Shown piece after piece: positions 1,225-63,044 of a stretch of DNA of 64,000 nucleotides. Location: IMG/VR virus record IMGVR_UViG_3300028549_000249, positions 23,986-87,985 of that record; one strand, 5' to 3'. The notes beneath the pieces were generated by a model. The model saw only the letters and a list, made by a program, of their open reading frames with translations. It did no database searches and was not told the DNA's origin. Position 1 is the stretch's first letter. Each line of letters opens with the position of its first letter. This stretch comes from a virus. Lineage: Duplodnaviria; Caudoviricetes. The translations under genes were made by a program, and so were the position numbers.

Positions 1225-2625
1225 ATGAATAATCCCAAGGAACGCAATCCTTCACTCTCATCGCCTGTCTTCTACCGCGACTGGTCTCAGACCATAGACC
1301 GCCTCTGGCAGGGGCACCTCACCCCATTCGAGTTCGCGATTATACGCTTCATCTTCGACCGCACCGTGGGGTGGGGTAAGGAGTGGGAAAGGATACCACT
1401 CCGCCATTTTACAGAGGGCGTGATTTCTAAAGATGACAAGTGCCACGGGCGCTCATGCCTCAAGCCGACGGCGGTGAAGGCTGCGCTGGCTTCTCTGAGC
1501 GAAAAGGGAGCCATCCTGATCCAGCACGAATCCAACTGTAACCACTACTCCCTCAACTACGAATGGACCCCTATGAAGACCCCAAAACGATTGAAAACAG
1601 CCGAGAAGGAGGATTCTCTTAGTTGGTCGGATGGCGACTATCCCGTTGGTCGCGTGGCGACTAACTGCAAGTCGCGTGGCGACCATCATAAGAGGGATAA
1701 AGGAAAGAGCCTTCGGAAACCTCAAGATGCCGCAACCGCTGACGCGGTTGACGTATCTTCGGGAAGGGGAGAGATGAAAATCGAAACCAGAGCAGAACTG
1801 GAAGCATCGCTGAAGAAGGTCGAGTCCGCTTCTCGTGCAAAGCGGGATGCAAAGAAGCAGGATGGTAAACTCATCCGAGGTGACTCCGGTCGGGTCCCGT
1901 CCCTTTCCGCCATGAGACGAATCTGGGCCGACTTTCACTCCGCGCACTGCAAGCAGGTGCCTCACACTGCACTACCTAACAAATCACTGTTCATGCTCCA
2001 GTCTTACGCGAAGGAGTGGAACCTCCGCCATGAGGGTGTCGAGTGGGTGGACTTCCTTGGATGGGTGTTCGAGAACTGGGATGCGATCACCCGCACCTCG
2101 TTCCGGTGGATGTCACCAAAGCCGATCTGCCCTGATCCTCATCTCGTCGCCTCAGCGAAGCTCCGAGTCTATCTGGAGGATGGATGGAATCACCGCGAAA
2201 CCATTAGGGCCATCTATGCGCTCCCACCAAGGGAACGTGAGATCCGGTTTCTTATGTTAGAGCGCGGGATGTCTCGTGAGGTAGCCGAGAAGTGGGCCAC
2301 GGCGCGGAAGGATCAAGATGCCAAGATCGATGAGTTGGCTGCCGAGCATCGCAAGCTGGAAGTCGCCAAGAAATCGTTAGCCCTTGAGCGGACTGCGATG
2401 AGTGCTACAGCACGACGCATCAAGGATCAAATTGACCGTCGGTCAAGTGAGCGGGCGGGTCTGAATGCCATGACCGAAGAGGATGAGGCTTCCATCGAAG
2501 AGGGCATGAGGATCGGTCTCCGCAAGCGGCTGGCTGCCGACGCTAAAGAGCGCGAGAAGGAAGAGCATGTCAAAGCCCCTAGTCCGAAAATTGAGATCCC
2601 CATGTCATTCCCTAAGTGGGACTAA
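1225..2625 (+). CDS. replication initiator, lambda O-like N-terminal domain
   Basis: FAIIRFIFDRTVGWGKEWERIPLRHFTEG resembles the Phage_rep_O N-terminus; lies upstream of loader and DnaB. Confidence 0.6.
   Translation: MNNPKERNPSLSSPVFYRDWSQTIDRLWQGHLTPFEFAIIRFIFDRTVGWGKEWERIPLRHFTEGVISKDDKCHGRSCLKPTAVKAALASLSEKGAILIQHESNCNHYSLNYEWTPMKTPKRLKTAEKEDSLSWSDGDYPVGRVATNCKSRGDHHKRDKGKSLRKPQDAATADAVDVSSGRGEMKIETRAELEASLKKVESASRAKRDAKKQDGKLIRGDSGRVPSLSAMRRIWADFHSAHCKQVPHTALPNKSLFMLQSYAKEWNLRHEGVEWVDFLGWVFENWDAITRTSFRWMSPKPICPDPHLVASAKLRVYLEDGWNHRETIRAIYALPPREREIRFLMLERGMSREVAEKWATARKDQDAKIDELAAEHRKLEVAKKSLALERTAMSATARRIKDQIDRRSSERAGLNAMTEEDEASIEEGMRIGLRKRLAADAKEREKEEHVKAPSPKIEIPMSFPKWD
1626..1683. repeat. 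three iteron-like palindromic repeats inside the initiator gene (putative ori)
   Basis: GTCGGATGGCGAC 1626, GTCGCGTGGCGAC 1649 and 1671; 22-23 bp spacing. Confidence 0.55.
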
Positions 2626-2638
2626 CCTTCTAACAAAA

Positions 2639-3169
2639 ATGCAAAAAAGAACCGACGAACAAATCATTGAGGCACTCGCACTAGCTGGGGTGCCAAAACT
2701 ATACCGAAGAAAAGACGTAGGGTTAAAGGCGTCGTGTGGTGTGATCGGTAACTCGCTGTCTGAGTTGCTAAAGGCTGGAGGACATAGGGGTCTGCTAGAG
2801 GGCGGGGTGATCGAAATCCGTGGGACCTCTGTTGAGACTACAAAGGCATTCTACTTATTGGTTAGGGAGCTTGTAGTTCGTAACATGCCAGCGTCGGTGC
2901 TGTTCGCTGAGGACCTGCGTCCTTCTCGAATCACCGATGACATATACACTCAGCTTCTTGAGTATAAGATTCTAGCTGTGGAAGGGCTAACCCCGCATAA
3001 GTGCAATCCGTTCGGTGCCGAGGCTCAAACCGTGGAATATCGTCTCCGACGATGGTTGGATCAGGGTTTAGGTCTTATTATTTTGACCGATGGTCAAATT
3101 TCAGATTGCGGTGTGTGGAGCAAACGATTCTGTGATCTCCTCGAAGAAAGAAAAATCTCACTATTCTAA
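2639..3169 (+). CDS. degenerate DnaC/IstB-like helicase loader
   Basis: Between initiator and DnaB; GVPKLY, ILAVEGL, LIILTD fit the fold; no intact Walker A. Confidence 0.45.
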   Translation: MQKRTDEQIIEALALAGVPKLYRRKDVGLKASCGVIGNSLSELLKAGGHRGLLEGGVIEIRGTSVETTKAFYLLVRELVVRNMPASVLFAEDLRPSRITDDIYTQLLEYKILAVEGLTPHKCNPFGAEAQTVEYRLRRWLDQGLGLIILTDGQISDCGVWSKRFCDLLEERKISLF

Positions 3170-3171
3170 CA

Positions 3172-4485: not shown

Positions 4486-7458
4486 ATGAATCAGAAAACG
4501 CACGGGAAAGTTAATATCTTGGAGGGCGCTAAAGGGACTGTCCTCGTGGTTGTGGACGCGCCACCATACAAGGCATACGAAACAGGGGCAGTGATGTCTA
4601 ACCCAGCAATGAAGTTGTTCGGGTCAATGATCAAGCCGCTGGGTTTCGCTGCCGAGGACTTCACATTCATCACTCCGTGCCCTCCGGTGCCTGAGGAGTT
4701 TCAGAAGTCAGAATCGAAGATCGGAAAGTTCCTCGAAGAGCATCGCTCAGAGTTTCTAACAGTGGTGTCACACTACGCAGCCAAAGCCCGTGCCGTGGTG
4801 GTGATGGGTAAGTGCGGGAACCGTCAACTTGCGGGAAAGCCCACTCCGGTCACGAAGGTAAGAGGAACCCTAACGACTAGAACTGCCACTGGCAACCTTC
4901 CGGTCATTCCTCTGTTAGGCCCAGCTCACGTAATGACTAGACCAGAGAACAAAGAGCTGTTTGAGTCAGACGTCAGATTGATCGGTGCCCTCCGTGACTG
5001 TAATTGGTCCGCCGACGAATACCGCTCTACTGGCGATACCACTGGCTATCAATGGTGCTTGGATCTGGCTCCGGTTATCGCGTCCAAGCCGAAGGGCATC
5101 GCTATCGACTGCGAGACCGTCGGTCTGGATTGGCACAAAGAGGGGTTCAGGGTCCTAACACTTAGTATCACTACCTCAGCCGGTAACGCCTTCGTGGTCC
5201 CGCTTGACGCCGAATACTTCAACGACCCGAAACTCCGAGGTGAATCCAGCAAGCACCTGCCACTTTTGACCGATGGTCAAATCGCAAAACTCAAGAAGCA
5301 GGCTAAGACCCTCTTCAAGGATGCGGACGTTAGCGTGGTGGGGCACAACCTCAAATTCGACATTCACTGTCTTCACGCCATCGGACTTGAAGTCGAGAAC
5401 TGGTATGCGGACACGATGCAGCTCGCCTTCACGGTGGATGAGAACATGATGTCCAAGAGCCTCACGGAATGCACTCGTCGGTGGGTGCCTGCTCTTGCCG
5501 GGTACTCCGACCTCTTCGATGCAAACACCGACAAGGCAAACATGCAGACCGTCCCGCACGATGAGATGCTGGAGTATGCGGGAGGTGATACAGACGCCAC
5601 CATTCGCCTCGCATCAATCCTCCTCAAAGAAGCCAAGCAGGACACCAAGAACTTCAATACGTTCCTGAAGGTGCAGATGCCGACGCTCCGCGCCTTTGTC
5701 GAAGTCGAACGCAATGGTCTCCTCGTGGACAAGGAAGCTCTCAGATCATTCGAGGCCGAGTTAGACGTCATGGAGATCGAGCTTTACCATGAGTTGATTT
5801 CCCTCGTGCCAAAGAAGGTCCTAGCAAAGCACGAGAAGGGGTGGTCCTTCGGTTCCTCCGCATTCGTCCGCGACATCCTCTTCAGCAAAGACGGGTTCAA
5901 CCTCAAACCTCTCGTCTTCACCAGCACCACGAAGCACCTCCCCTACTACGAGAGAATCCCTTCCACCTCCGCCAAGGACCACTTGCCCTTCTTCGAGGAC
6001 AACGAGTTTGTCCAGAAGCTCATGCGATACTCTAAGCTCTCCAAGATGAAGAGCACGTATGTCGGATCTGAAGGGCGAAAGACGATCAAGAAATTCAACC
6101 GGACTGCGGGTGGTGTGGTCCCCGCTAGAATCCAGAACTACCTCAACCCCTACGGCATCGAATTGCCGATCAGCAAGTCCTTCCGAAGACGCCGCCCGTT
6201 AGAAGGACTAAAGACTAAGTCTGGTCTCCCTCTCAATCTGCCGCTCACTATCAAAGTTTCGCTGAAACATGCGATCCGTGTCGATAAGTTCGGCAACATC
6301 GAAGAGCACCTCATCGACCCGCCGTCCGGCTTCTATCAGAACCTACGATACGGCAATACGATCCATGCATCGTTCCTCCTCCATGGCACAGTTACAGGAC
6401 GCACATCTAGCAGAAATCCTAACTTGCAGAACATCCCAAAGCGCGGAGAGCTTGCGAAGAAATTCAGGAAAATCTTCATCGCCCCTGAGGGCTACACTCT
6501 GTTAGAGGCTGACCTTAGCCAAGCGGAAATTCGAGTTGCCGGATGGATGGCAAACGACAAGGCGCTGATCGAAATCTACAAGAAGGGTGGTGACGTCCAC
6601 TCTGCTACTGCGGCGGTTGTCATGGACATCTCTGAGGCGAAGTTCCTCAAAGGGCGGAAGGATGAAACCCCCCTGATGTCCGTCTTAAACGAATGGCCGG
6701 GAGCGGGAACATGGGTCAAGTCGTTCGGCAACAATGAGCGTCAAAAACTAACAGTCGCTCAGTTCTGCGACTTCAAACGCTATCAGGCTAAGGCTGTGAA
6801 CTTCGGGTTCCTCTATGGGATGGGAGTCCACGGGTTCCGTCGCTACGCGAAGATTGACTACGGCATCGATCTAACACTCGAAGAAGCAGAAGACATCCAC
6901 AGCAAGTTCTTCGCCAAGTATTCGGGTCTCCGCGCATGGCATAAGGGCATGAAGGACTTTGTTGAGGCTAACAAATACGTCCGCTCGCTTCACGGTGCGC
7001 TACGCCGATTGCAGTCCGTGGATTCTGACGACGATGCGGTGCAGAGCGGTGCTGTTCGCCAAGCCGTGAACTCTCCAGTCCAACGCTTCGCCTCCGACCT
7101 CGGACTCATGGCTTTGCATCGTCTGGTGCGTGATGCTCCGAAGGATAAGATCAAGCCGATCATGTTCATCCACGACGCTATCGTGGTAGCCGTTCGTAAT
7201 GACTATATCGAAGAGGGTGCAGCCGCTCTGAAGTATTACATGGAGTCGCCTCCACTCGAAGAATGGTTCGGCATCAAAGCCCCGTTTCCGATTGTTTCAG
7301 ACGTCTCCTCCGGTGCTAACCTTGGAGCGATGGAAGAGAGTGAGGGCCTTGTAGCTAAGGCTCCGCCGTGGGCGTCCGCTGGAGAGTCAGAGCCGTCGCC
7401 CGCCCTTGCCGAGGCGTGGAGAAAGAAGAAGCGCAGGGGAATCATCCTAGCCGACTAA
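4486..7458 (+). CDS. polA: DNA polymerase family A with N-terminal uracil-DNA-glycosylase-like domain and 3'-5' exonuclease
   Basis: Exo IAIDCET / GHNLKFD / YAGGDTDAT; pol motifs ADLSQAEIR, KAVNFGFLYG, FIHDAI; N-terminal ~180 aa UDG4-like (VVVDAPP, FITPCPP). Confidence 0.95.
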   Translation: MNQKTHGKVNILEGAKGTVLVVVDAPPYKAYETGAVMSNPAMKLFGSMIKPLGFAAEDFTFITPCPPVPEEFQKSESKIGKFLEEHRSEFLTVVSHYAAKARAVVVMGKCGNRQLAGKPTPVTKVRGTLTTRTATGNLPVIPLLGPAHVMTRPENKELFESDVRLIGALRDCNWSADEYRSTGDTTGYQWCLDLAPVIASKPKGIAIDCETVGLDWHKEGFRVLTLSITTSAGNAFVVPLDAEYFNDPKLRGESSKHLPLLTDGQIAKLKKQAKTLFKDADVSVVGHNLKFDIHCLHAIGLEVENWYADTMQLAFTVDENMMSKSLTECTRRWVPALAGYSDLFDANTDKANMQTVPHDEMLEYAGGDTDATIRLASILLKEAKQDTKNFNTFLKVQMPTLRAFVEVERNGLLVDKEALRSFEAELDVMEIELYHELISLVPKKVLAKHEKGWSFGSSAFVRDILFSKDGFNLKPLVFTSTTKHLPYYERIPSTSAKDHLPFFEDNEFVQKLMRYSKLSKMKSTYVGSEGRKTIKKFNRTAGGVVPARIQNYLNPYGIELPISKSFRRRRPLEGLKTKSGLPLNLPLTIKVSLKHAIRVDKFGNIEEHLIDPPSGFYQNLRYGNTIHASFLLHGTVTGRTSSRNPNLQNIPKRGELAKKFRKIFIAPEGYTLLEADLSQAEIRVAGWMANDKALIEIYKKGGDVHSATAAVVMDISEAKFLKGRKDETPLMSVLNEWPGAGTWVKSFGNNERQKLTVAQFCDFKRYQAKAVNFGFLYGMGVHGFRRYAKIDYGIDLTLEEAEDIHSKFFAKYSGLRAWHKGMKDFVEANKYVRSLHGALRRLQSVDSDDDAVQSGAVRQAVNSPVQRFASDLGLMALHRLVRDAPKDKIKPIMFIHDAIVVAVRNDYIEEGAAALKYYMESPPLEEWFGIKAPFPIVSDVSSGANLGAMEESEGLVAKAPPWASAGESEPSPALAEAWRKKKRRGIILAD

Positions 7459-7584
7459 ATTTGAACGTCGGTCAAAACAATCATCTAGTCGTAAAATAAT
7501 CCTTGCAAAGGTTTCGCAGCTACGATACAGTAGATCATCGGTTGGGGATTCCCGCCGAAAATCAAACATCAATCCGCATCACCC

Positions 7585-10551: not shown

Positions 10552-10697
10552 TTATATGATTGCAAAGGACCCTCCACTATGTATTCTCACTCAGTCTGGG
10601 TTCGCCTTGACGAATTTGACCGTCGGTCAAAACACTCTCCATACGGGGAAAATAGCCCATTACGGGTAAACCAAATAACAAATAATACTACACTACC

Positions 10698-12151: not shown

Positions 12152-13570
12152 ATGGCAACTATCGATTCACTGGTATGGGTTCGCAGAGATGAAATCAAAG
12201 CGAGCGCATGGCCTATCATTGAGAAGGAGTTGCTCATTGTCCCGAAACCTCGTGCCACCTGCGCTTTCGAGTATGTCGATGGTGTAAAAAAGAAGGTGTG
12301 GCGCGAGGAGGAGACCGGAGGCCCGATTAACACTTTGGTTGAACGTGACGGACTCTACGGAATCCCTATCAACTATGCCATCCATACCTTAGGGCTGGAC
12401 CCTGAAGATGGCACCTCTCTGGGTCAGAAGGCGACTGTGGCGCGTCTTCCCGACCCCCACCACCCATCGGCTCCACCTAATCAGGCAAAGTTCTTCCGAG
12501 ACGTCCTTGAGGGTGTGATGGATTACGACGTAATACTCGCCTGCGCCCCTACCGGATCTGGTAAAACCGTTACCGTCCTGAATGCCGCTGGCACTCTACA
12601 ACGGACCACACTGATCGTGGTCCCTAACACTTTACTTGCAAACCAGTGGGTAAAGGAAATCAAGCTCCACCTTGGCCTTAACCCACGACACATCGGTTAC
12701 ATCGGCGGTGGTCGTGAACAGTGGGAGGGTAGGCGCTACGTGGTGGCAATCATCCACAACCTATTTCAACGGGAGTTCCCCGCTGAGTTTTACCGCTACT
12801 TTGGGTTCGTCGCATGGGATGAAGGCCACACGTTAGGCGCTCCTGAGTTCAGCAAGACGATGACCATGTTCCCCGCACGGTATAAGATTTCAGTCTCAGC
12901 AACTCCGGGACGTAAGGACGGACTCGACACACTGCTCTGGAATTACTTCGGACATCCGCGAGCCGTAGCCACCGCGCCTGCACTCGCCACGACATGCTGG
13001 AGGGTCCCCTTCCCGATCATAGGCGTGCCGAAGTGGATTGAGATGTGCAGGAATGACGTCAAGCCTATGAAGTGGCTGTCGCAGCTAAAGGTTAGAAACG
13101 ATTTACTCGTTCGCACGCTGATCTTCCTCTACAAGCGTGGCTACAGCGTGATTGCGATGTCCAAGTTCATCGACCATGTAGAGGTGATCCAGAAGATGCT
13201 CATAGCCGCTGGGGTCCCCGCTGATCACATTGGACAAATGACCCGCACCCAAGGCAAAAACTCTGTTAAGGTCGGTCAGGCTTACCTCGATTCCATGGTG
13301 GAGCGTCCCATTCTGTTAGGCACTTACTCCATGCTGAAGGTCGGATTCGATGACCCTAAACGCGATGCGGGAGTGGAGTTACTCCCTGTAGGCGACAACA
13401 TTCAAGGCATAGGCCGTGTCCGTCGCCCGTGCGCAGGAAAGAAAAAACCTTTGTGGTTCACCATTGAAGACTTGAACATTCCTTTGTTCGAGAGATACTC
13501 CAAGTCACGCCTCCGTGGATTTGCGGGCGCGAATGTAGAATTGAAAATACTAAAGGAAGGATCGATATGA
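12152..13570 (+). CDS. superfamily II DNA helicase (UvsW-like)
   Basis: APTGSGKT, DEGH, SATP, QGIGRVRR. Confidence 0.9.
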   Translation: MATIDSLVWVRRDEIKASAWPIIEKELLIVPKPRATCAFEYVDGVKKKVWREEETGGPINTLVERDGLYGIPINYAIHTLGLDPEDGTSLGQKATVARLPDPHHPSAPPNQAKFFRDVLEGVMDYDVILACAPTGSGKTVTVLNAAGTLQRTTLIVVPNTLLANQWVKEIKLHLGLNPRHIGYIGGGREQWEGRRYVVAIIHNLFQREFPAEFYRYFGFVAWDEGHTLGAPEFSKTMTMFPARYKISVSATPGRKDGLDTLLWNYFGHPRAVATAPALATTCWRVPFPIIGVPKWIEMCRNDVKPMKWLSQLKVRNDLLVRTLIFLYKRGYSVIAMSKFIDHVEVIQKMLIAAGVPADHIGQMTRTQGKNSVKVGQAYLDSMVERPILLGTYSMLKVGFDDPKRDAGVELLPVGDNIQGIGRVRRPCAGKKKPLWFTIEDLNIPLFERYSKSRLRGFAGANVELKILKEGSI

Positions 13571-14103
13571 ATACGAAACAAGGACGACCACGAGTCTACA
13601 AGACGGATAAGGAGCGCGATGCCGCTCGACGTTTACGCGATGCACAATACCAAAAGGAGTATCTGGCTGTTAGGCGCAAGCGTTACCAAGAGGACCCTGA
13701 ATACCGCAAGTGTGTGATTGAGCGCGAACGTCGCTCCTACCGCAAACGGAATCCAGAGTCGCCTTCCCGTCGTTTCGGAGCGAATGCTGGGAAGGCTAAC
13801 AGCTTTGCCTCGACCTACAGGGTCAAGGGTTCAAGGACCGCAGTCCGCGCCCTCACCATCACTCAGATGGCTGAGTTCCTCGGTGTGACTTCCAAGGTCC
13901 TCAACAACTGGATCTCTTGCAACAGGTTCCCTCGACCCTCGATGCAGGGCGATCCCGAACCAATACGCCTATTCTCCGTTCCCTTGGCTAACGAATTAGC
14001 AAAGCTCATGGCTGACGGCCTGAAGCATCGCTTCTCATTCCGTGAAACGGATACCGATCTCATTGTGAAGCTACACGCAACAAAGAACAGACAGAAAGAA
14101 TAA
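13567..14103 (+). CDS. basic DNA-binding protein with HTH
   Basis: LTITQMAEFLGVTSKVLNNWIS..FPRP excisionase/MerR-like HTH. Confidence 0.65.
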   Translation: MNTKQGRPRVYKTDKERDAARRLRDAQYQKEYLAVRRKRYQEDPEYRKCVIERERRSYRKRNPESPSRRFGANAGKANSFASTYRVKGSRTAVRALTITQMAEFLGVTSKVLNNWISCNRFPRPSMQGDPEPIRLFSVPLANELAKLMADGLKHRFSFRETDTDLIVKLHATKNRQKE

Positions 14104-16645: not shown

Positions 16646-17598
16646 AACTGCTAAGAAATCTCCAAGCTCAGGTCGCAGGTAAGTCGCGGCGAGCCAAGGC
16701 AAGAGGCGAGAAGGTAGAATCCGCTCCGGTTATCGACAACTACGTCGAGGACGGGTTCGTCACTCGTGAAGTCTGGAAGGCCGACTGTAAAGCAGAGAAG
16801 TCCCGTGGCGGCACCGGATACACTCACGGCTCCTCCCTCATTAACATGTGCGCAAGAAAGCACGCTCTGATGGCGCTGTTAGGTTCAGGCTATAAGCCCG
16901 TCCGCTCGGCAGACCGACTGCTCTGGGCCATCGGCAGGGCGGTTGAGAAGCACATCCGCACGGCCTTCATCGGTCAGGTCAAAGGTGCTGGAGTGATAGG
17001 CGTGTGGTCCTGTCGGTGTGGAAAGACCACTGATACGGGTTTTTGTCCGTCGGTCAAAATTAAGTGCTCGTGCTGCGGGCTGAAGCTGTCGAGCTATGGG
17101 GAGCTTACTGTGTTCGACCACGAGAATCGCATCGTGGGAAACCCCGACCTGCTCTACGCTAGGCCAGATACTAACAAGGTGCGCGTGAATGAAATCAAGT
17201 CGATGAACAAGAAGGACTTCGACTCTCTTACCACACCCAAAGGGGACCATGTATGGCAGGGTCTCATCTATCGGAGGCTGCTTGAAATCAACGATGTTGA
17301 CGTTGATGATTCAGTTGCGATCATCTACGGATGCAAGGACTACTCATTCAAAGGATCACCCTACAAGGAGTATACCGTCAAGGTAACCAAGCAGCACGAG
17401 GAGAACCTTGATAGGATGTGGGAGAAGGCGGGAGTGGTCGCTGAGTTTGTGGCTGCACTCAAACTCGGTGAAGAGACCAAAGAGATGTCGAAGCACCAGA
17501 AGCCGCTCCCTTCCCGCATACCTCAATGCTCCGCCGCTACCACAACCACAGCCAAGGGGTGCGATCAATGCTCCGCCTGCTTCTCACTAAAACAATGA
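16642..17598 (+). CDS. Cas4-like exonuclease (PD-(D/E)XK, predicted Fe-S)
   Basis: N-terminal CARK, GNPD, NEIKS, WQGLIY, C-terminal Cys cluster; inserted CxC..CxxC. Confidence 0.75.
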   Translation: MKLLRNLQAQVAGKSRRAKARGEKVESAPVIDNYVEDGFVTREVWKADCKAEKSRGGTGYTHGSSLINMCARKHALMALLGSGYKPVRSADRLLWAIGRAVEKHIRTAFIGQVKGAGVIGVWSCRCGKTTDTGFCPSVKIKCSCCGLKLSSYGELTVFDHENRIVGNPDLLYARPDTNKVRVNEIKSMNKKDFDSLTTPKGDHVWQGLIYRRLLEINDVDVDDSVAIIYGCKDYSFKGSPYKEYTVKVTKQHEENLDRMWEKAGVVAEFVAALKLGEETKEMSKHQKPLPSRIPQCSAATTTTAKGCDQCSACFSLKQ

Positions 17599-18405: not shown

Positions 18406-18567
18406 GACAATCATGACCTTTTCCTGTTAGAAGAAATTTGACCGTCGGTCAAATAATTGAAAATAATCCTTGCAAAGGTTCCCGCGCTACGTTATCAATT
18501 TTCCCGTCGGTGGTCCCGTTCCCATCACACCAATCAGAAGAGCGGAAATCATAAAACAAACACTACC

Positions 18568-19662
18568 ATGGCTAAGCCCACAAGTAAGCAGGAGTTCCAA
18601 AACGGAACTGAAGTCACGTTCGCAGGTTACGCAGCAGACGCCGAGGGCGGCGAGTTGCGTGCTGGCGATTCTCTAGTCATCCTCGGATTCGATAAGAATG
18701 ATGAGGTCTACAATGTCGAGCGCAAGTCCGACGGGATGAAGGATTCCCTCTACCCCGACGAGTTCACCGTCGCTGCCGCCACCGCTACCGCCAAGAAGGG
18801 TGCCGCGAAAGTTGAAACCAAGGCCGCACCGAAAGCCGAAGCCAAGGCAAAGCCTGAGGCGAAGCCCGTCGTGAAGACCGAGGCGAAAGCTGAAGCGAAG
18901 CCTGCGAAGCCTAACAAGGCTGAGAAGAAGGCCGCTCCTGTCGTGGTCGAGAAAGAGGAAGAAGAAGAAGAGGAAGAAGAAACCTACGTTCCTCAGCCGA
19001 AGTTCAAGGCCACGGTCTCTGTTACCGCTGCGGTCAAAGAAGCTGAGGGCGATTACCTCAAGGCCGCTCATGACCTCGCCGAGAAGGAAGCATGGACCAA
19101 GTTCACGTTCGGTGGCGTTCTCTCGAAGATCAAACGCGAGAACCTCCAAGTGACTATCATGTCAGACGAGAACGATGCGGAAGGAAACCCCATTCCGCTC
19201 TACACCGCTGACCTGTCAGGCTTCAACAGCTACGTCCGCGATGAGTTGAACGTCCATGACCGCAAGGCTCACAGCCTCGTGAACATCTACGAGAAGTTCT
19301 CGCAGATCACGACTGAAGCCAAGCTCAACAAGGTCGGTTGGACCAAGCTCCGCGAGCTGCTCCCTCTCGAACTCGACAAGGAAAACGTGGACGAATGGCT
19401 TACCAAGGCCAAGGACCTCCACACCTCCGACCTCCACGAGAGCGTTACGAAGACGCTTGTGGATTCCGGCACCGAAGTTCATGGTAAACGCCTCATGGCA
19501 GAGCAAGTGTCCTTCAAGTTCATCCTCTTCCAAGATCAGGGTGAAATGCTGAAGGAGGCCCTCGCCGAAGCCAAGAAGGTGATCGGCGAGGAGCAAACCG
19601 ATTCCATGGCGCTCAACCACATCATCACCGAGTGGCTCGGTGCGCTTCAATCGGAAGGTTGA
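18568..19662 (+). CDS. putative DNA-binding protein (small N-terminal domain, Lys/Ala/Pro linker, poly-Glu, HTH-like C-terminus)
   Basis: PKAEAK-type repeats, E9 run, KVGWTKLRELL; own promoter with adjacent palindrome. Confidence 0.6.
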   Translation: MAKPTSKQEFQNGTEVTFAGYAADAEGGELRAGDSLVILGFDKNDEVYNVERKSDGMKDSLYPDEFTVAAATATAKKGAAKVETKAAPKAEAKAKPEAKPVVKTEAKAEAKPAKPNKAEKKAAPVVVEKEEEEEEEEETYVPQPKFKATVSVTAAVKEAEGDYLKAAHDLAEKEAWTKFTFGGVLSKIKRENLQVTIMSDENDAEGNPIPLYTADLSGFNSYVRDELNVHDRKAHSLVNIYEKFSQITTEAKLNKVGWTKLRELLPLELDKENVDEWLTKAKDLHTSDLHESVTKTLVDSGTEVHGKRLMAEQVSFKFILFQDQGEMLKEALAEAKKVIGEEQTDSMALNHIITEWLGALQSEG

Positions 19663-22269: not shown

Positions 22270-22316
22270 AATATCCTTGCAAAGGTTTCGGCTTTAGCTA
22301 TACTAGGGTCAAGCGA

Positions 22317-23078: not shown

Positions 23079-23082
23079 CAAC

Positions 23083-24026: not shown

Positions 24027-24069
24027 AATAATCCTTGCAAAGGTTTCAGCTTTAGTTCATCCTACGTGT

Positions 24070-24843: not shown

Positions 24844-24855
24844 CCTAACACCACA

Positions 24856-40609: not shown

Positions 40610-40631
40610 TTTGACCGTCGGTCAAAAATCG

Positions 40632-41806: not shown

Positions 41807-42133
41807 ATGGCTACTAAACGTGCAACCAAGAAGGCACCCTCCAAGATGGAGAAGGTGAAGGGCGTCACTGAAATGACGAAGGAGAAACACAAGTTCGAGG
41901 GCTTCGCCGTCCGCGCCCAAAAGGGTGGTTACCATTTCCGCCAATACGTGTCAGCGTCCGCAAAGCTCGGCGCACCGAAGACCGTAGCCTATCAGGAGGC
42001 TGTCAATCTCCGCAACGCGCTGCAAGACGTCTTGGACGAGAAGAAGAACTGGCGTGCTAGTTCGCTCACCAAGGCTGCCTTGTCGGTGATCACCAAACTC
42101 GGCTTCAAAATCGAACAGGTGGCAACCGCATAA
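41807..42133 (+). CDS. AP2-like DNA-binding protein with basic N-tail
   Basis: GV...FEGFAVRAQKGG..FRQYVS...G..A...A..RN; own promoter at 41714. Confidence 0.5.
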   Translation: MATKRATKKAPSKMEKVKGVTEMTKEKHKFEGFAVRAQKGGYHFRQYVSASAKLGAPKTVAYQEAVNLRNALQDVLDEKKNWRASSLTKAALSVITKLGFKIEQVATA

Positions 42134-42458: not shown

Positions 42459-42535
42459 TTTGACCGTCGGTCAAATTCTTCTAACAGTTGAAAGTAATCC
42501 TTGCAAAGGTTTCATCTTTAGGCCATCCTACGCGT

Positions 42536-46339: not shown

Positions 46340-46357
46340 TTTGACCGTCGGTCAAAT

Positions 46358-46609
46358 ATGAGCAACGCAATACGCAAAAGGACGAAGAGGGCAGTGCCGT
46401 CCACCAAGAGTGAATGGGTGGGGATGCCTGAGTTCGTTCAGGACAAGCAGGAGCCGTTCGCCAAGATCATCTTCAGGTTCGAGAATGACGAGGACCTTCA
46501 GAAGTTCGCTCGCCTTATCGGCCAGAAGCTCAACTCGAAAACCAAGAGCGCGTGGTATCGCCACAAGCCGCATCGCAGGGAAACCAAACAGGTATGGTCT
46601 AACAAATGA
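46358..46609 (+). CDS. small protein coupled to the TAGT-like glycosyltransferase
   Basis: WVGMPEF..IIFRF..D..F..LIGQKL..KTKSAWY; ATGA overlap with next gene. Confidence 0.7.
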   Translation: MSNAIRKRTKRAVPSTKSEWVGMPEFVQDKQEPFAKIIFRFENDEDLQKFARLIGQKLNSKTKSAWYRHKPHRRETKQVWSNK

Positions 46610-47469
46610 GATACCCCGTCTACGTCATCTCCAAGGGAAGGCCGTCGAGTTGTATCACGGCGAGGGCGCTGAAGAAGTGCGGGATTCCGTTCAGGGTGGT
46701 AGTCGAGCCTCATCAGGTCGCCGCCTACGCCAAACGCATCGAAGGCAAACTGCTACTCGTCCTCCCGTTCAAGGACCTAGGGCAAGGGTCTATCCCTGCA
46801 CGCAACTGGGTATGGGAGCACAGTATCTCCGAGGGGCACGAGCGTCATTGGATCTTGGACGACAACATTGAGGCATTCAATCGGCTGAACCGAAACGACA
46901 AGCCAGAGGTGCATTGTGACTCCACGTTCCGTGCGTGTGAGGACTTCACTGATCGCTACTCGAATGTCGGTCTATCAGGAATGAACTATTACTCGTTCTG
47001 CAAGACCACCGATCCGGTGCCGCCCTATTACCTGAACACGAGGATCTACTCGTGCATCCTCGTTAGGAACAATCTGCCTTTCCGGTGGCGTGGGAAATAC
47101 AATGAAGACACGGACCTGTCTCTGAGAGTTCTGAAGTCGGGAGAATGCACCATCTTGTTCAACGCTTTCCTGTGTGGAAAGATGACTTCGATGCGGATGA
47201 GTGGAGGGAACACCAACGAGCTTTACGACAAGACCGATAACCGGAAGGAGTTCGCCGAGTCGCTGGTCGAGCAGCATCCCGACGTCGCCAAGGTCATGTG
47301 GAGGTTCAACCGCTGGCATCACATCGTGGACTATCGCCCGTTCAAGGGCAACGTGCTCAAGAGAAAGCCGCTCGAAACATGGCCGACTGGCATTGACGAA
47401 TACGGGATGAAATTGGTGACGGTCAAAGGCCCTGAGGCGGTAAAAGCCGTCCGAAAACGATCCAGATAA
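46606..47469 (+). CDS. TAGT/GREB1-like glycosyltransferase (predicted DNA base glycosylation)
   Basis: YVISKGR, ARNW, WILDDNI, RIYSCIL, NEDTDLSLRVL, GGNT. Confidence 0.75.
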   Translation: MRYPVYVISKGRPSSCITARALKKCGIPFRVVVEPHQVAAYAKRIEGKLLLVLPFKDLGQGSIPARNWVWEHSISEGHERHWILDDNIEAFNRLNRNDKPEVHCDSTFRACEDFTDRYSNVGLSGMNYYSFCKTTDPVPPYYLNTRIYSCILVRNNLPFRWRGKYNEDTDLSLRVLKSGECTILFNAFLCGKMTSMRMSGGNTNELYDKTDNRKEFAESLVEQHPDVAKVMWRFNRWHHIVDYRPFKGNVLKRKPLETWPTGIDEYGMKLVTVKGPEAVKAVRKRSR

Positions 47470-47652: not shown

Positions 47653-50600
47653 ATGTCCATTCCATCCATCGTTTGTGAAACGCTCCGAGACCGAGCGTCA
47701 ATGCTAGACGAGTTTTCCTGCGGGGAAGACGACGCCGAGCTTCTCCTCGAATACAAGGAAGAGGCTGAGGGTATCCAAGCCGCACTCGAAGCGGGCCTGC
47801 TCAACCGGATAGCCGCCGATTGCCTCATCTGGTATGCAGACCGAGACGGCTACTTCGAGGACCGCTCATGGCGCAGGCAAGTCAACCTCGCCTTCCACTC
47901 TGCGGGCATGCTGGAGAAGCATGACCCAAACACCATCCGCCTCGGCAGCAAACCAAAGCTGGTGGTGATCGAAGGAGAGAAATACGAATCCGCAATCTAA
48001 CACTTATGGCACTCGAACTCAAAACCGCGCCACCCGTCCCAAACAAGGTCGCGCTATTTCACTACCTGAAGACCTCCCGCATGGAGGCTCAGATATATGG
48101 GGCTGATCCACTGCCCGCCGCACTCGAAGAGGCAATCCTCGACGAACTCTGCAAGGAGAATCCACGCTCGCTAGACGAGATCCGCGCTCCCTTTACGGAA
48201 GCTCTCGCAAACCGCTACCGTGGCTGCGCCGATTAACTTATGAACAAGAACTACACCGAGGGCATTGACCCCAAGACTGGCGAATACTTCTACCGCGAGC
48301 ACAAGAGGAATGGCAGCCGCCCTACCCCGTTCATGCTCGACTTCATCAACCCTCGGCAGCAGCTCACAGGCTTGTGCTCTGAGGTGTGGATAGCCCGCAT
48401 TGAGGACATGATCCTCCACAAGAAAGCCCTGAAGATGCTGGGCGTCCTTCCCGACAACTACGAGCGGCGAGTCGAGAGGCAGATCAACCTGAAGGCCGTT
48501 ACCGCGATGGCTAGATTTAGAAAGAACCTTGAGTCGTGAGTTACGTCACCGCAATCGACAAAGACGGCAACACCATTCAGCTTCGGGGTGATCTAACACT
48601 AGAGGATCTGATGCGTATGGGTTTCGAGGTCCGGCTGCAAGCCAAGCCTCCAGTCCGGCCAACCATGGTCCTCCCGCTGCGGCGTGAGGAGATTGCCGAA
48701 CTCAAGCCCGTCCTGAAGACTCGGACCATGGAAGAGCGAATCAGCGACTACTGTGGGTTCAAGGTGGTTAGTAAGTCGCCGTTCATTCACCACGTAGCCT
48801 TATTCACTACAGGGAAGTTCGGCCAGTCCATCGTCCCTGTGATCATCCCAGCAAACATGACTAACGTCGCGCTGAAGGCTAAGTTGCCAGAGATCAAAAA
48901 GAAGCTGGTCGAGGCCATCCGCATGTCTGATGCAATCTACGAACTGAAGCACCGCAAGCGCGGTCCCTACAGCACGAAGAAGAATCCCAAGAAGCCAGCA
49001 CCCAAGTCATCAAAGGACCGAAAGAAATGAAGATCCGCCAACCATACAGATACCCTCTAACAGAGGAGAAGTTCAAGGCCCTACATAAAAGCCTGAAGGC
49101 GATATGTAAGTCATCGGACCTCCAATGCGACCTCGTAGATCGTAAGCCTCTCACCTATGGCTACAAGCTGGGTGTGTTCCTGTTAGGTTATCGGGTAGGC
49201 TTTTGCGGCGACGAGAAGGGGATCTCTGAAGCCAAGTGGGTCGAGGTCACTACGACCATCACCGCCCTGATCCTCGAAGCTATCCCAGAGGCGGAAATCC
49301 AAACCGACAATTTCAGTGAGACCAAGAAATTCGCCCTTAGATGGGAAGCCTACATACAAACCAGAGAACCCTAGTAGCCTACCGTCAATCCTATGAATTC
49401 ACACACCCCAACGTATCGCATCATCCTGCTATGCAGCAAAGATGATCCGAGGAAGCCGAAGAAGCGCCTCTTGCCTGAGAGGTTCACTAAGCGTCAGCAG
49501 GCCCGCAACTGGCTACGCAACAATTGGATGAAGCATGACGGCGAAGGTTTCCTGATCCGGCATCCTGATTTCACCGAGGAGCAAACCACCTACCTTAACA
49601 AGAAATGAATATCAGCCACGCCTACACGGGACAATGCCCGTCCTGCCATCTCACGAGAACAGAACTCACACCGAATGGGAGGACTAATACCATCCATCGC
49701 ACCTGCCATACGTGCAGGGCGAACATGGTCCTTCGTCGGGATGAGGCGCGAGACAAACCACTAAGGCAAGTTCACGACCTCAGGAGAGGCGTGTTCGGCA
49801 CGAGTATCGCAGACCTGATCATTGACAAATATCCAATAAAACCAGAACAATAAAGCAGCAACAATTATTTGATCCAGAGCCTAACATGCGATTCCGAGGC
49901 GCTGGTCATCGAAGGACCCACATGGGATCAGTGATGGAGGTAGTATGCGGGCTCCTTAAAATGCAACGCTTCCGGTGGCTCTTCGATCTATCAGCCGGAC
50001 GCGATGAACTCCAAGAAGCAACCCGTCGAGATCAAATCCGTGTGTGTCACATCGAAGCTGAAGGGCAAGTCGGTGCTCTATGACTTCCGGCTGGAGAAGG
50101 ATGCCAAGCATGCTCCGAGGCTGGCCTACGTGTTCGCCTGCCATCCTTCCGGTGGTAAGGGGCCCGCACGATGGGTGACTTCTTGGACCGTCTCTGTGGT
50201 CCGCTGGTCCTAGCTGTGGTTCCGGCATGGACGGTCCGCAAGCACGCCAAGGAGTTTCAGCTACGCACCATCAAATCCGAGAGGAAATCTAACAAGCGGG
50301 CTGGGTATGTGCGGGCTACATAGACGGGTATCGCAATCTTGAGGTGCATCACTACATCCGAGATGCCGAGTGCCTTGAGACACGAGAGTTCGAGCGGTGG
50401 GGTCGAAAGTTCTCCGCCGTGGTGATGCTCTACAAGAAGGACCCGTGGTCGCTCGACCCTGAAGATTTGACCGTCGGTCAAAATAATCTTCTAACAGTTG
50501 AAAATAATCCTTGCAAAGGTTTCGGATCTAGTCCATTCTACGTGTATGTCCAAGCGATCCATCCTCCGCAAAGTCAACTCCGCGCTCGCCGCACTTGGCC

Positions 50601-55770: not shown

Positions 55771-56610
55771 ATGAAAACGAACCCAAGCAGAAGTATCATC
55801 CTGATTGAGAACCCGTTGTGTGGCAACCTCAGTATGGCTAAGGGAATGGGTTTGACCGTCGGTCAAATGAAGTGGGCGGTCCCGTCAGCGGTTAGGGCTG
55901 AGGTCGGTGCCGATGTCTGGAAGGCTGCACTCAAGGCGGTGATGGTCTCGGTTCCGCTCGACCGATTCTACACTGGAGTCGCTTTGTCGGTGGTCACCAC
56001 GGAGGGGCGGTTGGTAGATGCTGGAGCGAACGAGGAGTTCATCGCTCTGGTAGACGAGATCCGCGAGGAGTCCGCCGAGGCCCGCGCTTCCCGTGTCCTC
56101 GCCCACCTGAAGCAGAACGGGTTTGAGGGTTCCCCTGTGTGGTTCCGCCCACAGAAGGAGTGGTTAGCTTCAAAGTTCGATCTGGTGATCGCTACTCACT
56201 TGATGCACGAGTTCTTCAACACGCATCCTGACTTCCGAGTTTCGGTGAAGTTCTTCCCTGCCATCAACAGAGGGTGGAAGGTGGCCAAGCTCAACAAGGA
56301 CGACCTGCCTTTGTTCCGCGAGGTGTATGCTGAGGACGAGACTCTATTCCGCCGCCTGATGGTTTACTCGCCACGACCTGAGAAGGTCCGCCTCATCTAC
56401 GGCTACTGCGCCACATGCGTTGCGCCTGCAAAACCCGAACTCGCGCCTATCGACCTGACATCCAAGGATGAAGAGGTTTCCGAGCCGATTCCGGTGGTCG
56501 AAGTGGCCGAGTATTCGCCAGAATCCGGCTCAGAGGTTGCTGAGGATGCACCTGATGAGGAGTCGGGTGATCAAGGCCCTAAAACTAAAAAGAAGCGTAG
56601 GCTTTCCTAG
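55771..56610 (+). CDS. hypothetical protein
   Basis: 279 aa; contains the palindrome 55851; TTGACG-17-CATTCT promoter upstream. Confidence 0.7.
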   Translation: MKTNPSRSIILIENPLCGNLSMAKGMGLTVGQMKWAVPSAVRAEVGADVWKAALKAVMVSVPLDRFYTGVALSVVTTEGRLVDAGANEEFIALVDEIREESAEARASRVLAHLKQNGFEGSPVWFRPQKEWLASKFDLVIATHLMHEFFNTHPDFRVSVKFFPAINRGWKVAKLNKDDLPLFREVYAEDETLFRRLMVYSPRPEKVRLIYGYCATCVAPAKPELAPIDLTSKDEEVSEPIPVVEVAEYSPESGSEVAEDAPDEESGDQGPKTKKKRRLS

Positions 56611-59262: not shown

Positions 59263-60131
59263 ATGTCCAATCCATTCCTCCGCCAGTCCCGTTTGCCAGC
59301 CGTCCTTCCGGTAGTCACCGACAAGATGCTCCGCGAAGAAGCCGCCGCCTTTCAAGCCTACCGCGATTCTGAGGACGCCAAAAAATTCAAAGTCAAAACG
59401 CAGTTCGGGTTTTCCCGCTACTCCACCGAAGAGCAAGCCAAGGAGTTCGCCGCCACGCTCAAGGAGCCATACTGCATCCTTTCCTGTAAGTCTAACCACA
59501 ATAGAAAATACCACAATGAGCATCCAAGAAAAGTCGAGGCTACCTCATCCTACGCACAGCAACTCATTCGCGCAGGGTGGGCACGAAACGCCGCCATCGC
59601 TAACAGCCAGAACCTCCACCGCCTCTCCGACAAGAGGATGAAGGAGGTCGAAGCTCTTGTCCCAACCATCCACCACGACAGCAAATGAAACCAAGATTCA
59701 CTCAAGACGAGAAGAGCGCGTGGGTGCTCACGGCACTCACTCCGCTACTGGATTCAGGACACCCTACCCGAAGCGTGGGCGTCTCTGCACTCAGCCTCGT
59801 TTTATCGGCGAGTGCTAGAACGCGCTGCCGACCTCGGCTATGCCACTCGCCTAACCACACCCACTATGGGATGCCGCAGATACAAACTCCATAGCTAATG
59901 AAAACTTTCGCAGCCCTTAAAGAAGTGAGAGGAAAGATCCACCTGTGCGGCGAGGGCTGCACTTCGGTTGAGGCATGGGATGATGCGTTCGGACCTCTAG
60001 GTCTGGACCGTAGCCGCCGCGCCTTTGCCGATGGTGCCTACGTGAAGGAGGTCGATCAGTTTCAGTTGGCGCGTTACCGCCGTCGCCCTCTCAAACGCGA
60101 AGTGGCTGATTTGACCGTCGGTCAAAACTGA
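59263..60131 (+). CDS. accessory cassette of three small ORFs (59263..59688, 59685..59894, 59898..60131)
   Basis: Leaderless MSNPF start; inserted between head morphogenesis and protease genes. Confidence 0.6.
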
Positions 60132-61159: not shown

Positions 61160-62869
61160 ATGAAAATGAAACACGCTGAACTGCTCCGGTTGAAGGCTCT
61201 GTCCGCCAAGGCGGCTGCAAGCCTTACTGCCGATGAAGTGACGGAACTCGCTTCCCTCAAATCCAAGGCCGCTGCCGCAAGCATCGACCTCGCCAAGCTG
61301 GATGACGCTATCGAAGCTGCCAAGGCAGCCGAAGCCACCCAGATCACCGATGAAGACCTCACCGCCCTGATCGGCAAAGCGGTTACCGCTGCCATGAAGG
61401 AATCCGGCGTGGATGAAGACGGCATGGTCGATAAGATCAAAGCCGCTATCTCCGCTGTCGGTGCGAACGCCATCACACCTGAGAAGGTTTCCGAGATTGT
61501 CAAGGAGCACCTTGGCGGTCATGGCATCGATCAAGCAGCCCTCATCGCCGAGATCACCAAGTCCATTCCAAAGGACGCGCTGACCTCGACTGAACTTGCG
61601 AAGGCTCTCGACAAGTTCGCCGCTTCGATCCGTCAGCCCTCGAAGATGGTCTTCGACGATCCTTACGCCAAGGATTTCCCGATTGAACACCGCTCCGGTA
61701 ACTTGAGTGTTGCTGAGAAGCAGTTGCTCAACGTCTGCATGCAGCACGTTTCGCCTGAGAAGAAGTTGGAGATGAAGTCGAAAGGCATCACCATCCCAAC
61801 TTCGATGAACGACGGAATCACCGAAGAGCAACTGAAGGCAGCGCAAAACGCTGGCCTCGTTGCGATGAAGCGTGCTCGTCACCAAGCCCTCTACGGCAAG
61901 GCCCTCACCACTAGCGGTGCTGGTTCCGGTGCCGAGTTGATTCCTACCGACCTGTCGGGCGAGTTGATGACCCGCATGTATCTCGAAAGCCAGTTGGCTG
62001 CCGAGTTCGTGGCGTCGGAAATCGACATGCCTACCAACCCGTTCATGTTCCCTCTGACCACCGACCGCACCCGCTTCTACACGGGTTCGGAGGCTCCAGC
62101 GAACAACCCAACCGCGAGTGAGCCTACCACTGGCGACCTCACCTTGACTGCTTCCAAGCTGATCGGCATGTCCGAGTATAGCTACGAGGCAGACGAAGAC
62201 GCGATCATCGCTTGCTTGCCGCTCCTGTTGGAAAACATGAGTTCAGGTGCCGCTGACGCTCTCGAAGGTGCGCTCATTAATGGTGACACCACCGCTACCC
62301 ACATGGACGATGACACCGCCGCTGGCAACCACGCGAAGCTCTTCAAAGGCTTCCGTAAGTTGGCCCTCGCTGGTTCGTCCAAGAAGGTCCTCACGGGTGG
62401 CATCACCGCCGCTAACATCGCCGCAATGCGCAAGCAGATGCTCCGCTGGGGTATCCGCCCACGCGACCTGATGTTGATTTGTGGCTCTAACGGCTACAAC
62501 GACATCGTGAACCTTGCGGAGACCCTCACCTTTGACAAGGTGGGCAATGCCAACGCTGCACGCATCCTCACGGGTGAAGCTGGCAGCATCTATGGCATTC
62601 GCCTCGTGGTCTCCTCGCAAGTGCGCGAAGACCTGAATGCCACGGGTGTCTATGAGACCGCTGGTGTTCACACCCAAGGTTCGATCCTCATGGTTCACCG
62701 TCCGAGCTGGATGCTTGGTGTGCGTCGTGGTTTCACCGTTGAGGTGGATGTGGACAAGAAGCGCCAGATCAACTCTGTGATCGCTTCCTTCCGCCGCGCA
62801 TTCATGCCGAAAGAGCCACCCTCCGTGTCTCTGCCAACGGTGGTCCTCGGATATGGTTACGCCGCCTAA
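61160..62869 (+). CDS. major capsid protein (HK97 fold) with long N-terminal scaffold/delta domain
   Basis: Helical Ala/Lys N-terminus, GAELIPT..S, ALEGALINGD, IYGIRLV; follows protease. Confidence 0.88.
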   Translation: MKMKHAELLRLKALSAKAAASLTADEVTELASLKSKAAAASIDLAKLDDAIEAAKAAEATQITDEDLTALIGKAVTAAMKESGVDEDGMVDKIKAAISAVGANAITPEKVSEIVKEHLGGHGIDQAALIAEITKSIPKDALTSTELAKALDKFAASIRQPSKMVFDDPYAKDFPIEHRSGNLSVAEKQLLNVCMQHVSPEKKLEMKSKGITIPTSMNDGITEEQLKAAQNAGLVAMKRARHQALYGKALTTSGAGSGAELIPTDLSGELMTRMYLESQLAAEFVASEIDMPTNPFMFPLTTDRTRFYTGSEAPANNPTASEPTTGDLTLTASKLIGMSEYSYEADEDAIIACLPLLLENMSSGAADALEGALINGDTTATHMDDDTAAGNHAKLFKGFRKLALAGSSKKVLTGGITAANIAAMRKQMLRWGIRPRDLMLICGSNGYNDIVNLAETLTFDKVGNANAARILTGEAGSIYGIRLVVSSQVREDLNATGVYETAGVHTQGSILMVHRPSWMLGVRRGFTVEVDVDKKRQINSVIASFRRAFMPKEPPSVSLPTVVLGYGYAA

Positions 62870-62916
62870 GCCGGCCAAAAGATTCCAGTAGGGTGCCCTC
62901 CCTGATTGGTAGCACG

Positions 62917-62952
62917 CCGTCCATCCTCGAAAGGGGGTGGGCGGTTTGTTTT
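62917..62952 (+). terminator. intrinsic terminator after MCP
   Basis: 12-bp stem with GAAA loop, then TTTGTTTT running into the palindrome 62950. Confidence 0.8.
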
Positions 62953-63044
62953 GACCGTCGGTCAAATTACCGTTAGCGAATTTCGTATTGCTTACTAAGC
63001 CCCTCCGAGGTAGAACGTCTACGAGCTACCCGTCAGAGAAACAC

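Follow-up and report, generated by a model that had tools for sequence, protein, structure and literature searches.

Dispersed palindromic sites in a group of siphophages and a candidate phage-encoded protein that may read them

IMG/VR virus record IMGVR_UViG_3300028549_000249 is the 87,985-bp genome of an uncultured phage from microbial-mat metagenomes (here the mat phage), which is rated complete and bounded by a 255-bp exact direct terminal repeat. The window analysed is a stretch of 64,000 nt, bases 23986-87985 of the record. All genes are carried on the + strand, and the G+C content is ∼54%. A 17-bp palindrome is scattered over the genome, and one gene in the window, called gene X below (18568-19662), may encode the protein that reads it. 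Scanning ∼75 open reading frames (ORFs), some but not all of the small ones included, against Pfam and PHROGs revealed no integrase, repressor, RNA polymerase or ParA, and the phage is probably lytic.

The window consensus of the palindrome is TTTGACCG(T/A)CGGTCAAA. A sequence-only reading of the window had listed 19 positions, and a pattern search found all of them to be real. Ten are exact copies of TTTGACCGTCGGTCAAA; the nine that are not marked as exact below carry one or two mismatches. The promoter cores mentioned in the list are the TTGCAAAGG elements of a sigma70-like promoter cassette (TCTAACAGTTGAAAATAATCC-TTGCAAAGG) present in ∼22 copies. The sites, in window coordinates, are as follows.

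2431-2447 (+): ATTGACCGTCGGTCAAG, two mismatches; in the initiator gene 1225-2625, read as IDRRSS
3082-3098 (-): TTTGACCGATGGTCAAA, reversed centre; in ORF 2567-3169 (putative helicase loader by position), read as LTDGQ
5265-5281 (-): reversed centre; in PolA 4486-7458, read as LTDGQ
7460-7476 (+): TTTGAACG...; 1 nt past the PolA stop codon and 26 nt 5' of promoter core 7503
10615-10631 (+): exact; in the gap between the primase and gp32-like SSB genes, ∼46 nt 3' of promoter core 10560
17042-17058 (+): TTTGTCCG..., one mismatch, turning an in-frame TGA into TGT; in the Cas4-like exonuclease gene, read as FCPSVK
18437-18453 (+): exact; 16 nt 5' of the gene X promoter core, a candidate autoregulatory operator
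22823-22839 (+): …CGTTCAAA; in ORF 22317-23078 (253 aa), read as LTVVQ
25489-25505 (+): TTTGACCATCGG...; directly 3' of the stop codon of ORF 24856-25488 and 24 nt 5' of promoter core 25530
28033-28049 (+): TTTGACCATCGG...; in the gap 5' of a methyltransferase/glycosyltransferase/IbrAB-like operon, with no TTGCAAAGG core after it
31591-31607 (+): TTTGAACG...; its TGA terminates the IbrA-like PAPS reductase gene; 12 nt 5' of the IbrB/ParB_N gene
36054-36070 (+): exact; its TGA terminates ORF 35675-36058
40610-40626 (+): exact; adjoins the TerL stop codon (40609), at the left end of a repeated ∼130-nt cassette that reaches promoter core 40752
42459-42475 (+): exact; 25 nt 5' of promoter core 42501
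46340-46356 (+): exact; occupies an 18-nt gap between the stop codon at 46339 and the ATG at 46358
50466-50482 (+): exact; 28 nt 5' of promoter core 50511
55851-55867 (+): exact; at the 5' edge of ORF 55771-56610, before the portal gene, and intragenic only with the longest start
60110-60126 (+): exact; 5 nt short of the end of ORF 59898-60131, 5' of the head protease gene
62950-62966 (+): exact; 80 nt past the stop codon of the major capsid gene

The pattern TTTGACCGWCGGTCAAA has 10 exact matches in the window and 0.00 in dinucleotide shuffles; with up to 3 mismatches the shuffles contain 0.24 matches, against 19 in the window at up to 2. A scan of the remaining genome brought the total to 24 sites, 14 of them exact. 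Site centres fall outside called ORFs in 16 of the 24 cases, although ORFs span 83% of the genome (P 7e-8), and the sites are spaced more evenly than at random, with a coefficient of variation (CV) of 0.48 vs 0.96 (P 2.5e-4). Nine start within -5 to +2 nt of an upstream stop codon, and at genome position 13481, outside the window, as well as at window 31591 and 36054, the TGA of the palindrome itself terminates the upstream gene. Read on the coding strand, 22 of 24 sites have T as their centre base (P 3.6e-5), the arms being otherwise symmetric. Elsewhere in IMG/VR the exact 17-mer was found in three contigs, one copy each, which is the chance level. A mobile element of the REP or MITE type was rejected, as the flanks are unrelated save for two cassette copies and the intragenic copies are in frame and codon-shaped.

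Seven sites lie 16-28 nt 5' of a promoter cassette. Among the positions earlier proposed as promoter-proximal, 7460, 18437, 25489, 42459 and 50466 precede a TTGCAAAGG core at this distance, and 28033 does not clearly do so; the placement of 10615 just downstream of a promoter was borne out. The palindrome is not itself a -35 element, there being no -10 at a fixed distance from it. It does not resemble an intrinsic terminator either, since it ends in AAA with no T-run or U-tract following. A terminator scan gave 22 hits vs 17.7 expected by chance, 42459 being the sole site flagged, and generic promoter and terminator scans covering 24-44 kb were at chance level.

Within called ORFs there are 7 sites, whereas 200 synonymous-codon shuffles, the codon-preserving check that the sequence-only reading had suggested, gave 0.5 on average and never more than 3. 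Its count of at least seven intragenic copies is a little high: five lie deep in long genes (2431, 3082, 5265, 17042 and 22823), every one of them imperfect, and 55851 and 60110 sit at ORF edges. The peptides it assigned to intragenic copies (IDRRSS, LTDGQ, FCPSVK, LTVVQ and LTVGQ) are correct. It had further argued that selection acts on the DNA, a view that loss of such copies at synonymous sites in relatives would have undermined. Contig L030, a collinear relative with 50-72% amino-acid identity, has five sites, three of which are orthologous to sites of the mat phage: in the primase/SSB gap (L030 position 1486, corresponding to 10615), 5' of gene X, and inside the Cas4-like gene. The last is kept at identical codons, TTT TGT CCG TCG GTC AAA (FCPSVK) in the mat phage and TTT AGA CCA TTG GTC AAA (FRPLVK) in L030, with different amino acids at 2 of 6 positions. 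Here the consensus would give an in-frame TGA, which the two phages escape via different single changes, to TGT and AGA. Conservation of the site at the same codons favours selection at the level of DNA. In more distant relatives no site is present, and this part of the protein is a variable loop flanked by cysteine pairs. An 11-bp core without the TTT/AAA ends (GACCGTCGGTC) lies inside PolA at window 5112-5122 and may be a weak extra site.

Cultured relatives were identified by tblastn with PolA (30-46% identity), and four were fetched and searched de novo for repeated palindromes. Each relative examined, including several metagenomic contigs, has a dispersed palindrome of its own.

Aeromonas phage HJ05: TTTGCAAC-NN-GTTGCAAA, 25 copies
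Rhizobium phage L338C: TGCAAC-NN-GTTGCA, 54 copies
Rhodobacter phage RcDurkin: TGCAATCGATTGCA, 49 copies
Pseudomonas phage SM1: TGCAA(G/A)CG(C/T)TTGCA, at least 14 copies in 50 kb
Metagenomic contigs L022-L036: TTTG(A/C)AC-N3-GT(G/T)CAAA
Contig L030: TTTGACC-N3-GGTCAAA, five sites

In the whole genomes of HJ05, L338C and RcDurkin the sites are again evenly spaced (CV 0.45-0.66 vs ∼0.97 at random, P<=2e-4). The centre is polar in HJ05 (TG:CA 11:3) and L338C (TT:AA 13:2), and shows no polarity in SM1 (5:5). About 14 sites of L338C lie 8-9 bp 5' of the -35 of a conserved promoter, and several of HJ05 lie between an intrinsic terminator and a promoter. Position is conserved despite the different sequences. 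All four phages have a site between RuvC and the following gene, three (the mat phage, HJ05 and L338C) have one 1-6 nt past the PolA stop codon, and three (the mat phage, L338C and RcDurkin) have one near the 3' end of the initiator gene; a conserved site also lies downstream of the AAA+ ATPase gene. The initiator-gene sites occupy unaligned residues across the four phages, and those of three phages share no more than a location in one variable stretch near the C-terminus. Full-text literature searches, the RcDurkin paper included, turned up no account of such palindromes in these phages.

Gene X (P0003, 364 aa, 18568-19662, +) is a core syntenic gene directly after RuvC, and the lineage's own palindrome lies 96-163 nt 5' of it in 12 lineages. 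In the AlphaFold model an N-terminal SH3/Tudor/KOW-like barrel (residues 14-68) is followed by a disordered linker rich in K, A, P and E, which in some homologues matches histone-H1-like models, and then by a helical C-terminal domain with a ParB/KorB-type helix-turn-helix (HTH) and a C-terminal helical hairpin. The recognition helix is HDRKAHSLVNIYEKF, residues 230-244. At 50% identity the family comprises 2,805 cluster representatives at E<=1e-3. Gene X falls in no family of Pfam or NCBIfam. No ParB-related model of either collection (HTH_ParB, KorB, ParB_N) matched any of 25 homologues at E<=1, and a PDB profile search gave no significant match. The homologues of HJ05 (L010:21796-23586), RcDurkin (L015:22969-24264) and SM1 (L021:44202-45551) have long A/K/P-rich C-terminal tails terminating in RRK, GRKR or RGRK, and the N-terminal barrel of the HJ05 protein occurs in three tandem copies.

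Assignment of the C-terminal domain to the ParB/KorB-type DNA-binding fold is made at the level of predicted structure. Modelled alone (model mf7fddbc3837d, pLDDT 85.5) and compared by VIA-align, the domain reached Z>=5 with only 9 of 48,161 PDB chains (cluster representatives), four of which are ParB-family DNA-binding domains: ParB bound to parS (6s6h_B; Z 8.1, 112 aligned, rmsd 3.7), Spo0J (1vz0_A; Z 7.5, 105 aligned, rmsd 3.3), KorB bound to its operator (1r71_A; Z 6.2, 108 of 114 residues aligned, rmsd 3.5) and KorB again (8qa8_A; Z 5.2). In Foldseek the rows with a probability above 0.8 (0.8-0.96) were all ParB or Noc, at E ∼1, and structural neighbours in the ESM Atlas carry HTH_ParB. 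A symmetric homodimer is predicted for the domain, with a score of 0.73 (best control 0.00), contact agreement >=82% and pLDDT >=81; among solved structures, 20 of 30 homodimers and 1 of 23 monomers score this high. Gene X has no ParB_N (Srx-like) CTPase domain, which implies that its protein is not a CTP-gated sliding clamp; ParB_N domains occur only in three separate proteins encoded at 31620-33495.

The recognition helix of gene X tracks the half-site of the palindrome. An alignment of gene X scanned against IMG/VR and JGI metagenomes yielded 19 loci; closer homologues (P0006 and P0017) lie on contigs of 86 and 91 kb, outside the set of contigs that were read. Helix HDRKAHSLVNIYEKF pairs with TTTGACC in the mat phage and L030, helices AARKADYFVNLYEKF and APRTADYYVNIYECF (..RKADYFV.., ..RTADYYV..) pair with TTTGCAC, helix E(S/P)R(S/T)AAYYVDLYEMF pairs with TTTGAAC, and helices DYRKAMYLIKIYTHF and QYRKARYLITIYTTF (.YRKA.YLI.IYT.F) pair with TGCAAC in HJ05 and L338C. 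This covariation is good circumstantial evidence for gene X, albeit not proof. The sequence-only reading had proposed that a dimeric protein coats the whole genome as a global repressor, roadblock or organiser. A dimeric, phage-encoded reader and selection on the DNA are the parts of that interpretation that computation supports. Among its named candidates, the first, 18568-19662, fits, combining the predicted fold and homodimer with the upstream site in 12 lineages and the helix covariation. The small HTH protein at 13567-14103 (phrog_19880) fails the covariation test; its helix is not conserved between HJ05 and L338C despite their common motif, and its helix (S/P/A)K(V/I)L(N/S)xWI is nearly invariant across contigs with different motifs. 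Candidate 41807-42133 has no family match and no detectable DNA-binding family. The IbrB-like ParB_N protein (31620-32291), also considered, keeps its helix unchanged across site classes.

Taking together the sites, their placement, the family-wide covariation of site and protein and the modelled fold, we consider it reasonably probable that the palindromes are docking sites for a dimeric gene X protein, which would also regulate its own promoter. We infer DNA binding, the stoichiometry of the dimer on DNA, and the regulatory outcome: one dimer would read the two TTTGACC half-sites, and the protein would control its own promoter via site 18437. The remaining 23 sites, spread evenly and mostly at the boundaries of transcription units, would extend its control to the whole genome. 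Promoter-proximal sites may modulate the repeated sigma70-like promoters, and gene-end and intragenic sites may serve as roadblocks, insulators, or nucleation points for a nucleoprotein coat. The promoter-proximal sites fit a regulatory role and, most clearly through the fixed 8-9-bp spacing in L338C, suggest direct action on RNA polymerase. The even spacing fits an organiser, and together with the gene-end, operon-internal and intragenic sites and the H1-like tail it suggests a roadblock or insulator function or a nucleoprotein scaffold.

Several observations weigh against this explanation. The ParB likeness is middling (Z 6-8, Foldseek E ∼1) and goes with no Pfam or NCBIfam ParB match. Four of the five other chains at Z>=5 are Raf1 alpha-domains, which score as high as ParB; the alignment of the fifth (Z 5.1) is confined to the C-terminal helical hairpin. 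The covariation rests on around six classes of site, phylogeny is a partial confounder, and the test covered gene X and two other HTH candidates, with the initiator outside it. A symmetric dimer does not explain the T bias at the centre, and the variable distance of 16-28 nt from site to -35 is unlike what a phase-locked activator or a core-promoter repressor needs.

In a more far-reaching and rather doubtful version of this proposal, the large, unannotated gene X family would be a CTPase-less viral chromatin or insulator system built on a ParB-type HTH with a histone-H1-like tail, nucleating at the evenly spaced parS-like sites and either dividing a lytic genome into domains of transcription or coating it. 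The polar centre would then mark directional roadblocks, and the three ParB_N proteins might supply their domain in trans.

It is unlikely that the reader is another phage protein, either an unannotated small protein or the Phage_rep_O-like initiator (1225-2625), for which the sites would be secondary origins or a titration sink. The N-terminus of the initiator matches Phage_rep_O weakly (E 1e-3), a site recurs near the 3' end of its gene in the three phages named above, and many small ORFs are unannotated. Lambda O, moreover, binds dyad-symmetric iterons. A clustered iteron origin is nevertheless unlike 24 evenly spread single sites, the combination of a ParB-type HTH, a predicted dimer, an upstream site and covariation occurs only in gene X, and the two other HTH candidates fail on covariation.

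An improbable alternative is that the palindromes act as hairpins in RNA or single-stranded DNA, as processing or stability signals at cistron ends or as priming or nicking signals on one strand. The strand-biased centre base in the mat phage, HJ05 and L338C would suit such a role, as would the nine sites abutting or overlapping stop codons in a genome with all genes on one strand. The variants, however, break pairing without compensation or wobble, with recurrent A.G, A.C and C.T mismatches such as that of TTTGAAAC/GTTGCAAA in 9 HJ05 sites. Sites of HJ05 also follow intrinsic terminators and precede promoters, where little transcript is expected. The missing U-tract, the terminator scan at chance level and the lack of polarity in SM1 also speak against hairpins.

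A still poorer prospect is that the sites do not control transcription but act as polar signals, read by a DNA translocase or in replication, whether for the packaging motor, for fork traps or for Chi-like protection. Such signals would account for the centre-base polarity, which is co-oriented with the whole genome, and for the even spacing, and the direct terminal repeats and large recombination module make them conceivable; yet the site is otherwise a perfect palindrome, is tightly coupled to the -35 of ∼14 L338C promoters at 8-9 bp, and holds a conserved position 5' of gene X. We know of no polar translocase signal that is palindromic. A host transcription factor, TetR/RutR-like or other, which the sequence-only reading had also named, is very unlikely despite a superficial likeness to the RutR box and a half-site resembling the -35 hexamer (TTGACC, TTGCAA), because the palindromes of relatives track the phage protein and not the host: one motif is common to HJ05 and L338C, the hosts of which belong to different bacterial classes, palindromes vary between close relatives in samples of a similar kind, and TetR_N had no match in the ORFs scanned.

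The promoter cassettes associated with some of the sites are ∼45 bp long and comprise one or two TCTAACA boxes, GTTGAAAATAATCC, TTGCAAAGGTTTC and a weak -10, often followed by ATGTCCAA. Copies lie at window 7503, 18470, 22277, 24035, 25530, 26806, 33671 and 35315, and further ones at 40752, 42501, 45274, 47618, 50511, 59228 and elsewhere. The gene X promoter (18470-18500, +) is assigned by consensus match only, as a sigma70-like TTGCAA, 17 nt and TATCAA. The idea of a sigma54 promoter was dropped, since the cassette has no GG at -24. A possible second operator overlapping the gene X start site (CCGTCGG, 18504) is probably due to chance, this 7-mer being found 9 times elsewhere. L338C has an analogous cassette, TTGACAAAGGATCGGTTC...TTAGATT, and the AAGG that follows the -35 is conserved between phages whose hosts differ, which suggests a promoter signal specific to phages. 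The ∼130-nt cassette with a palindrome at its left end occurs at genome position 10127, outside the window, and at window 40610, and continues into a promoter. It reads AAATC..GCCC.TAGATTGC.CGAGGA ... GCGAACGATTTG(A/G)CTCTAACA and contains a lone TTTGAC half-site beside the TCTAACA box.

Family scans place a siphophage tail module at the left end of the genome and identify genes for TerS, TerL, portal, protease and capsid. The replication and recombination module encodes an AAA+ ATPase, the Phage_rep_O-like initiator, DnaB, PolA with a UDG-like N-terminus, primase, helicase, RecA, two Holliday-junction resolvases and the Cas4-like exonuclease. A likely DNA-modification module has methyltransferase-like genes, a glycosyltransferase, the IbrA-like PAPS reductase and the three ParB_N proteins. 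The following features, in window coordinates unless stated otherwise, may be added.

Genome 21345-25042 (up to window 1057): trio 5' of the replication genes, conserved in all relatives, of an AAA+ ATPase (phrog_8638, 546 aa), a protein with a weak DUF1257 match, and a 67-aa DUF2997-like protein
4486-7458: PolA with an N-terminal UDG-superfamily domain (residues 19-158, E 1e-4), also found in SM1 and relatives
28090-33495: likely DNA-modification operon, with methyltransferase-like ORFs and a glycosyltransferase
30399-31595: IbrA-like PAPS reductase with DUF3440
31620-32291: IbrB-like ParB_N protein
32310-32873 and 32602-33495: two more ParB_N proteins with C-terminal Cys pairs, overlapping in different frames
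38111-40609: TerL, 832 aa, matched by terminase profiles in separate stretches (34-499, 495-569 and ∼785-819)
46606-47469: second glucosyltransferase

The UDG-superfamily domain on PolA fits the presence of non-canonical bases in the DNA, and the split matches of TerL suggest an inserted element, for instance an intein. In microbial-mat metagenomes, Logan contigs contain the same phage at >=99% identity, with assembly breaks at the repeats and no strain variation. A megablast search of 7.5 kb against GenBank phages gave nothing beyond one 40-nt match, and PolA used alone in the related-locus search returned no relatives.

Binding of these sites by the gene X protein would mean that an entire group of siphophages possesses a plasmid-style, genome-wide network of protein and DNA so far undescribed in them. 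Its members in culture include phages of Pseudomonas aeruginosa (Samunavirus), Rhizobium, Rhodobacter and Aeromonas, in which the idea can be tested directly. Such binding would assign a function to an unannotated family of thousands of proteins, make matched pairs of helix and half-site a natural series for studying how ParB-type HTH specificity evolves, and explain short palindromes written into coding sequence. It would also bear on how therapeutic Pseudomonas phages, in which the sites and the gene are currently invisible, are engineered and annotated.

Some known phage systems share the layout of the sites. The C1 operators of P1 and the conserved inverted repeats of phiC31 are cases of one repressor with many 17-bp sites genome-wide; these regulons maintain lysogeny in temperate phages, their repressors have unrelated folds, and the P1 sites are asymmetric. 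The stoperators of cluster A mycobacteriophages, read by a repressor of the L5 gp71 type, likewise number some 24-35 over the phage genome, with many in short gaps at gene ends (PMC9283540, PMC6550527). They differ in being asymmetric, 13-14 bp long and bound by an immunity repressor that is monomeric, has two domains and belongs to temperate phages (PMC9283540, PMC6550527). In the mat phage the site is a 17-bp palindrome, the predicted dimer has another fold, and no integrase or immunity repressor was found among the scanned ORFs. As to orientation relative to transcription, which is biased in stoperators, the site of the mat phage is polar in its centre base only (T 22:2), the arms being otherwise symmetric.

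The system would resemble ParB-parS and Noc-NBS, where a dimeric HTH reads a palindrome of 14-16 bp and few residues in and after the recognition helix switch specificity; the best fold matches of gene X also lie there (6s6h_B, 1vz0 and 7nfu). As with ParB, KorB and Noc, a short palindromic site is present in several copies on the replicon, here 24. Unlike these systems, gene X has neither a CTPase domain nor a Pfam ParB match, and parS sites are clustered near the origin for segregation, whereas the phage sites are evenly spread. A ParA-type Walker ATPase partner, as in ParABS, was not found in the ORFs scanned, and the only ATPase near the replication module is a classic AAA+ protein.

KorB and its OB operators on the IncP-1 plasmid RK2 are the nearest known counterpart. 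The differences are that the replicon is a probably lytic phage, with 24-54 sites vs 12, that no ParA/IncC or KorA-like partner was found among the scanned phage ORFs, and that gene X lacks a ParB_N CTPase domain but has an SH3-like domain at its N-terminus and a histone-H1-like linker. KorB also has an SH3-like domain. Both systems would have a ParB-type HTH as reader, the operator-bound KorB domain (1r71_A) aligning to that of gene X at Z 6.2. The 12 OB operators (core TTTAGCGGCTAAA; PMC11790492), like the sites of the mat phage, form a TTT...AAA palindrome scattered over the replicon, partly adjacent to promoters and partly far from them (PMC11790492).

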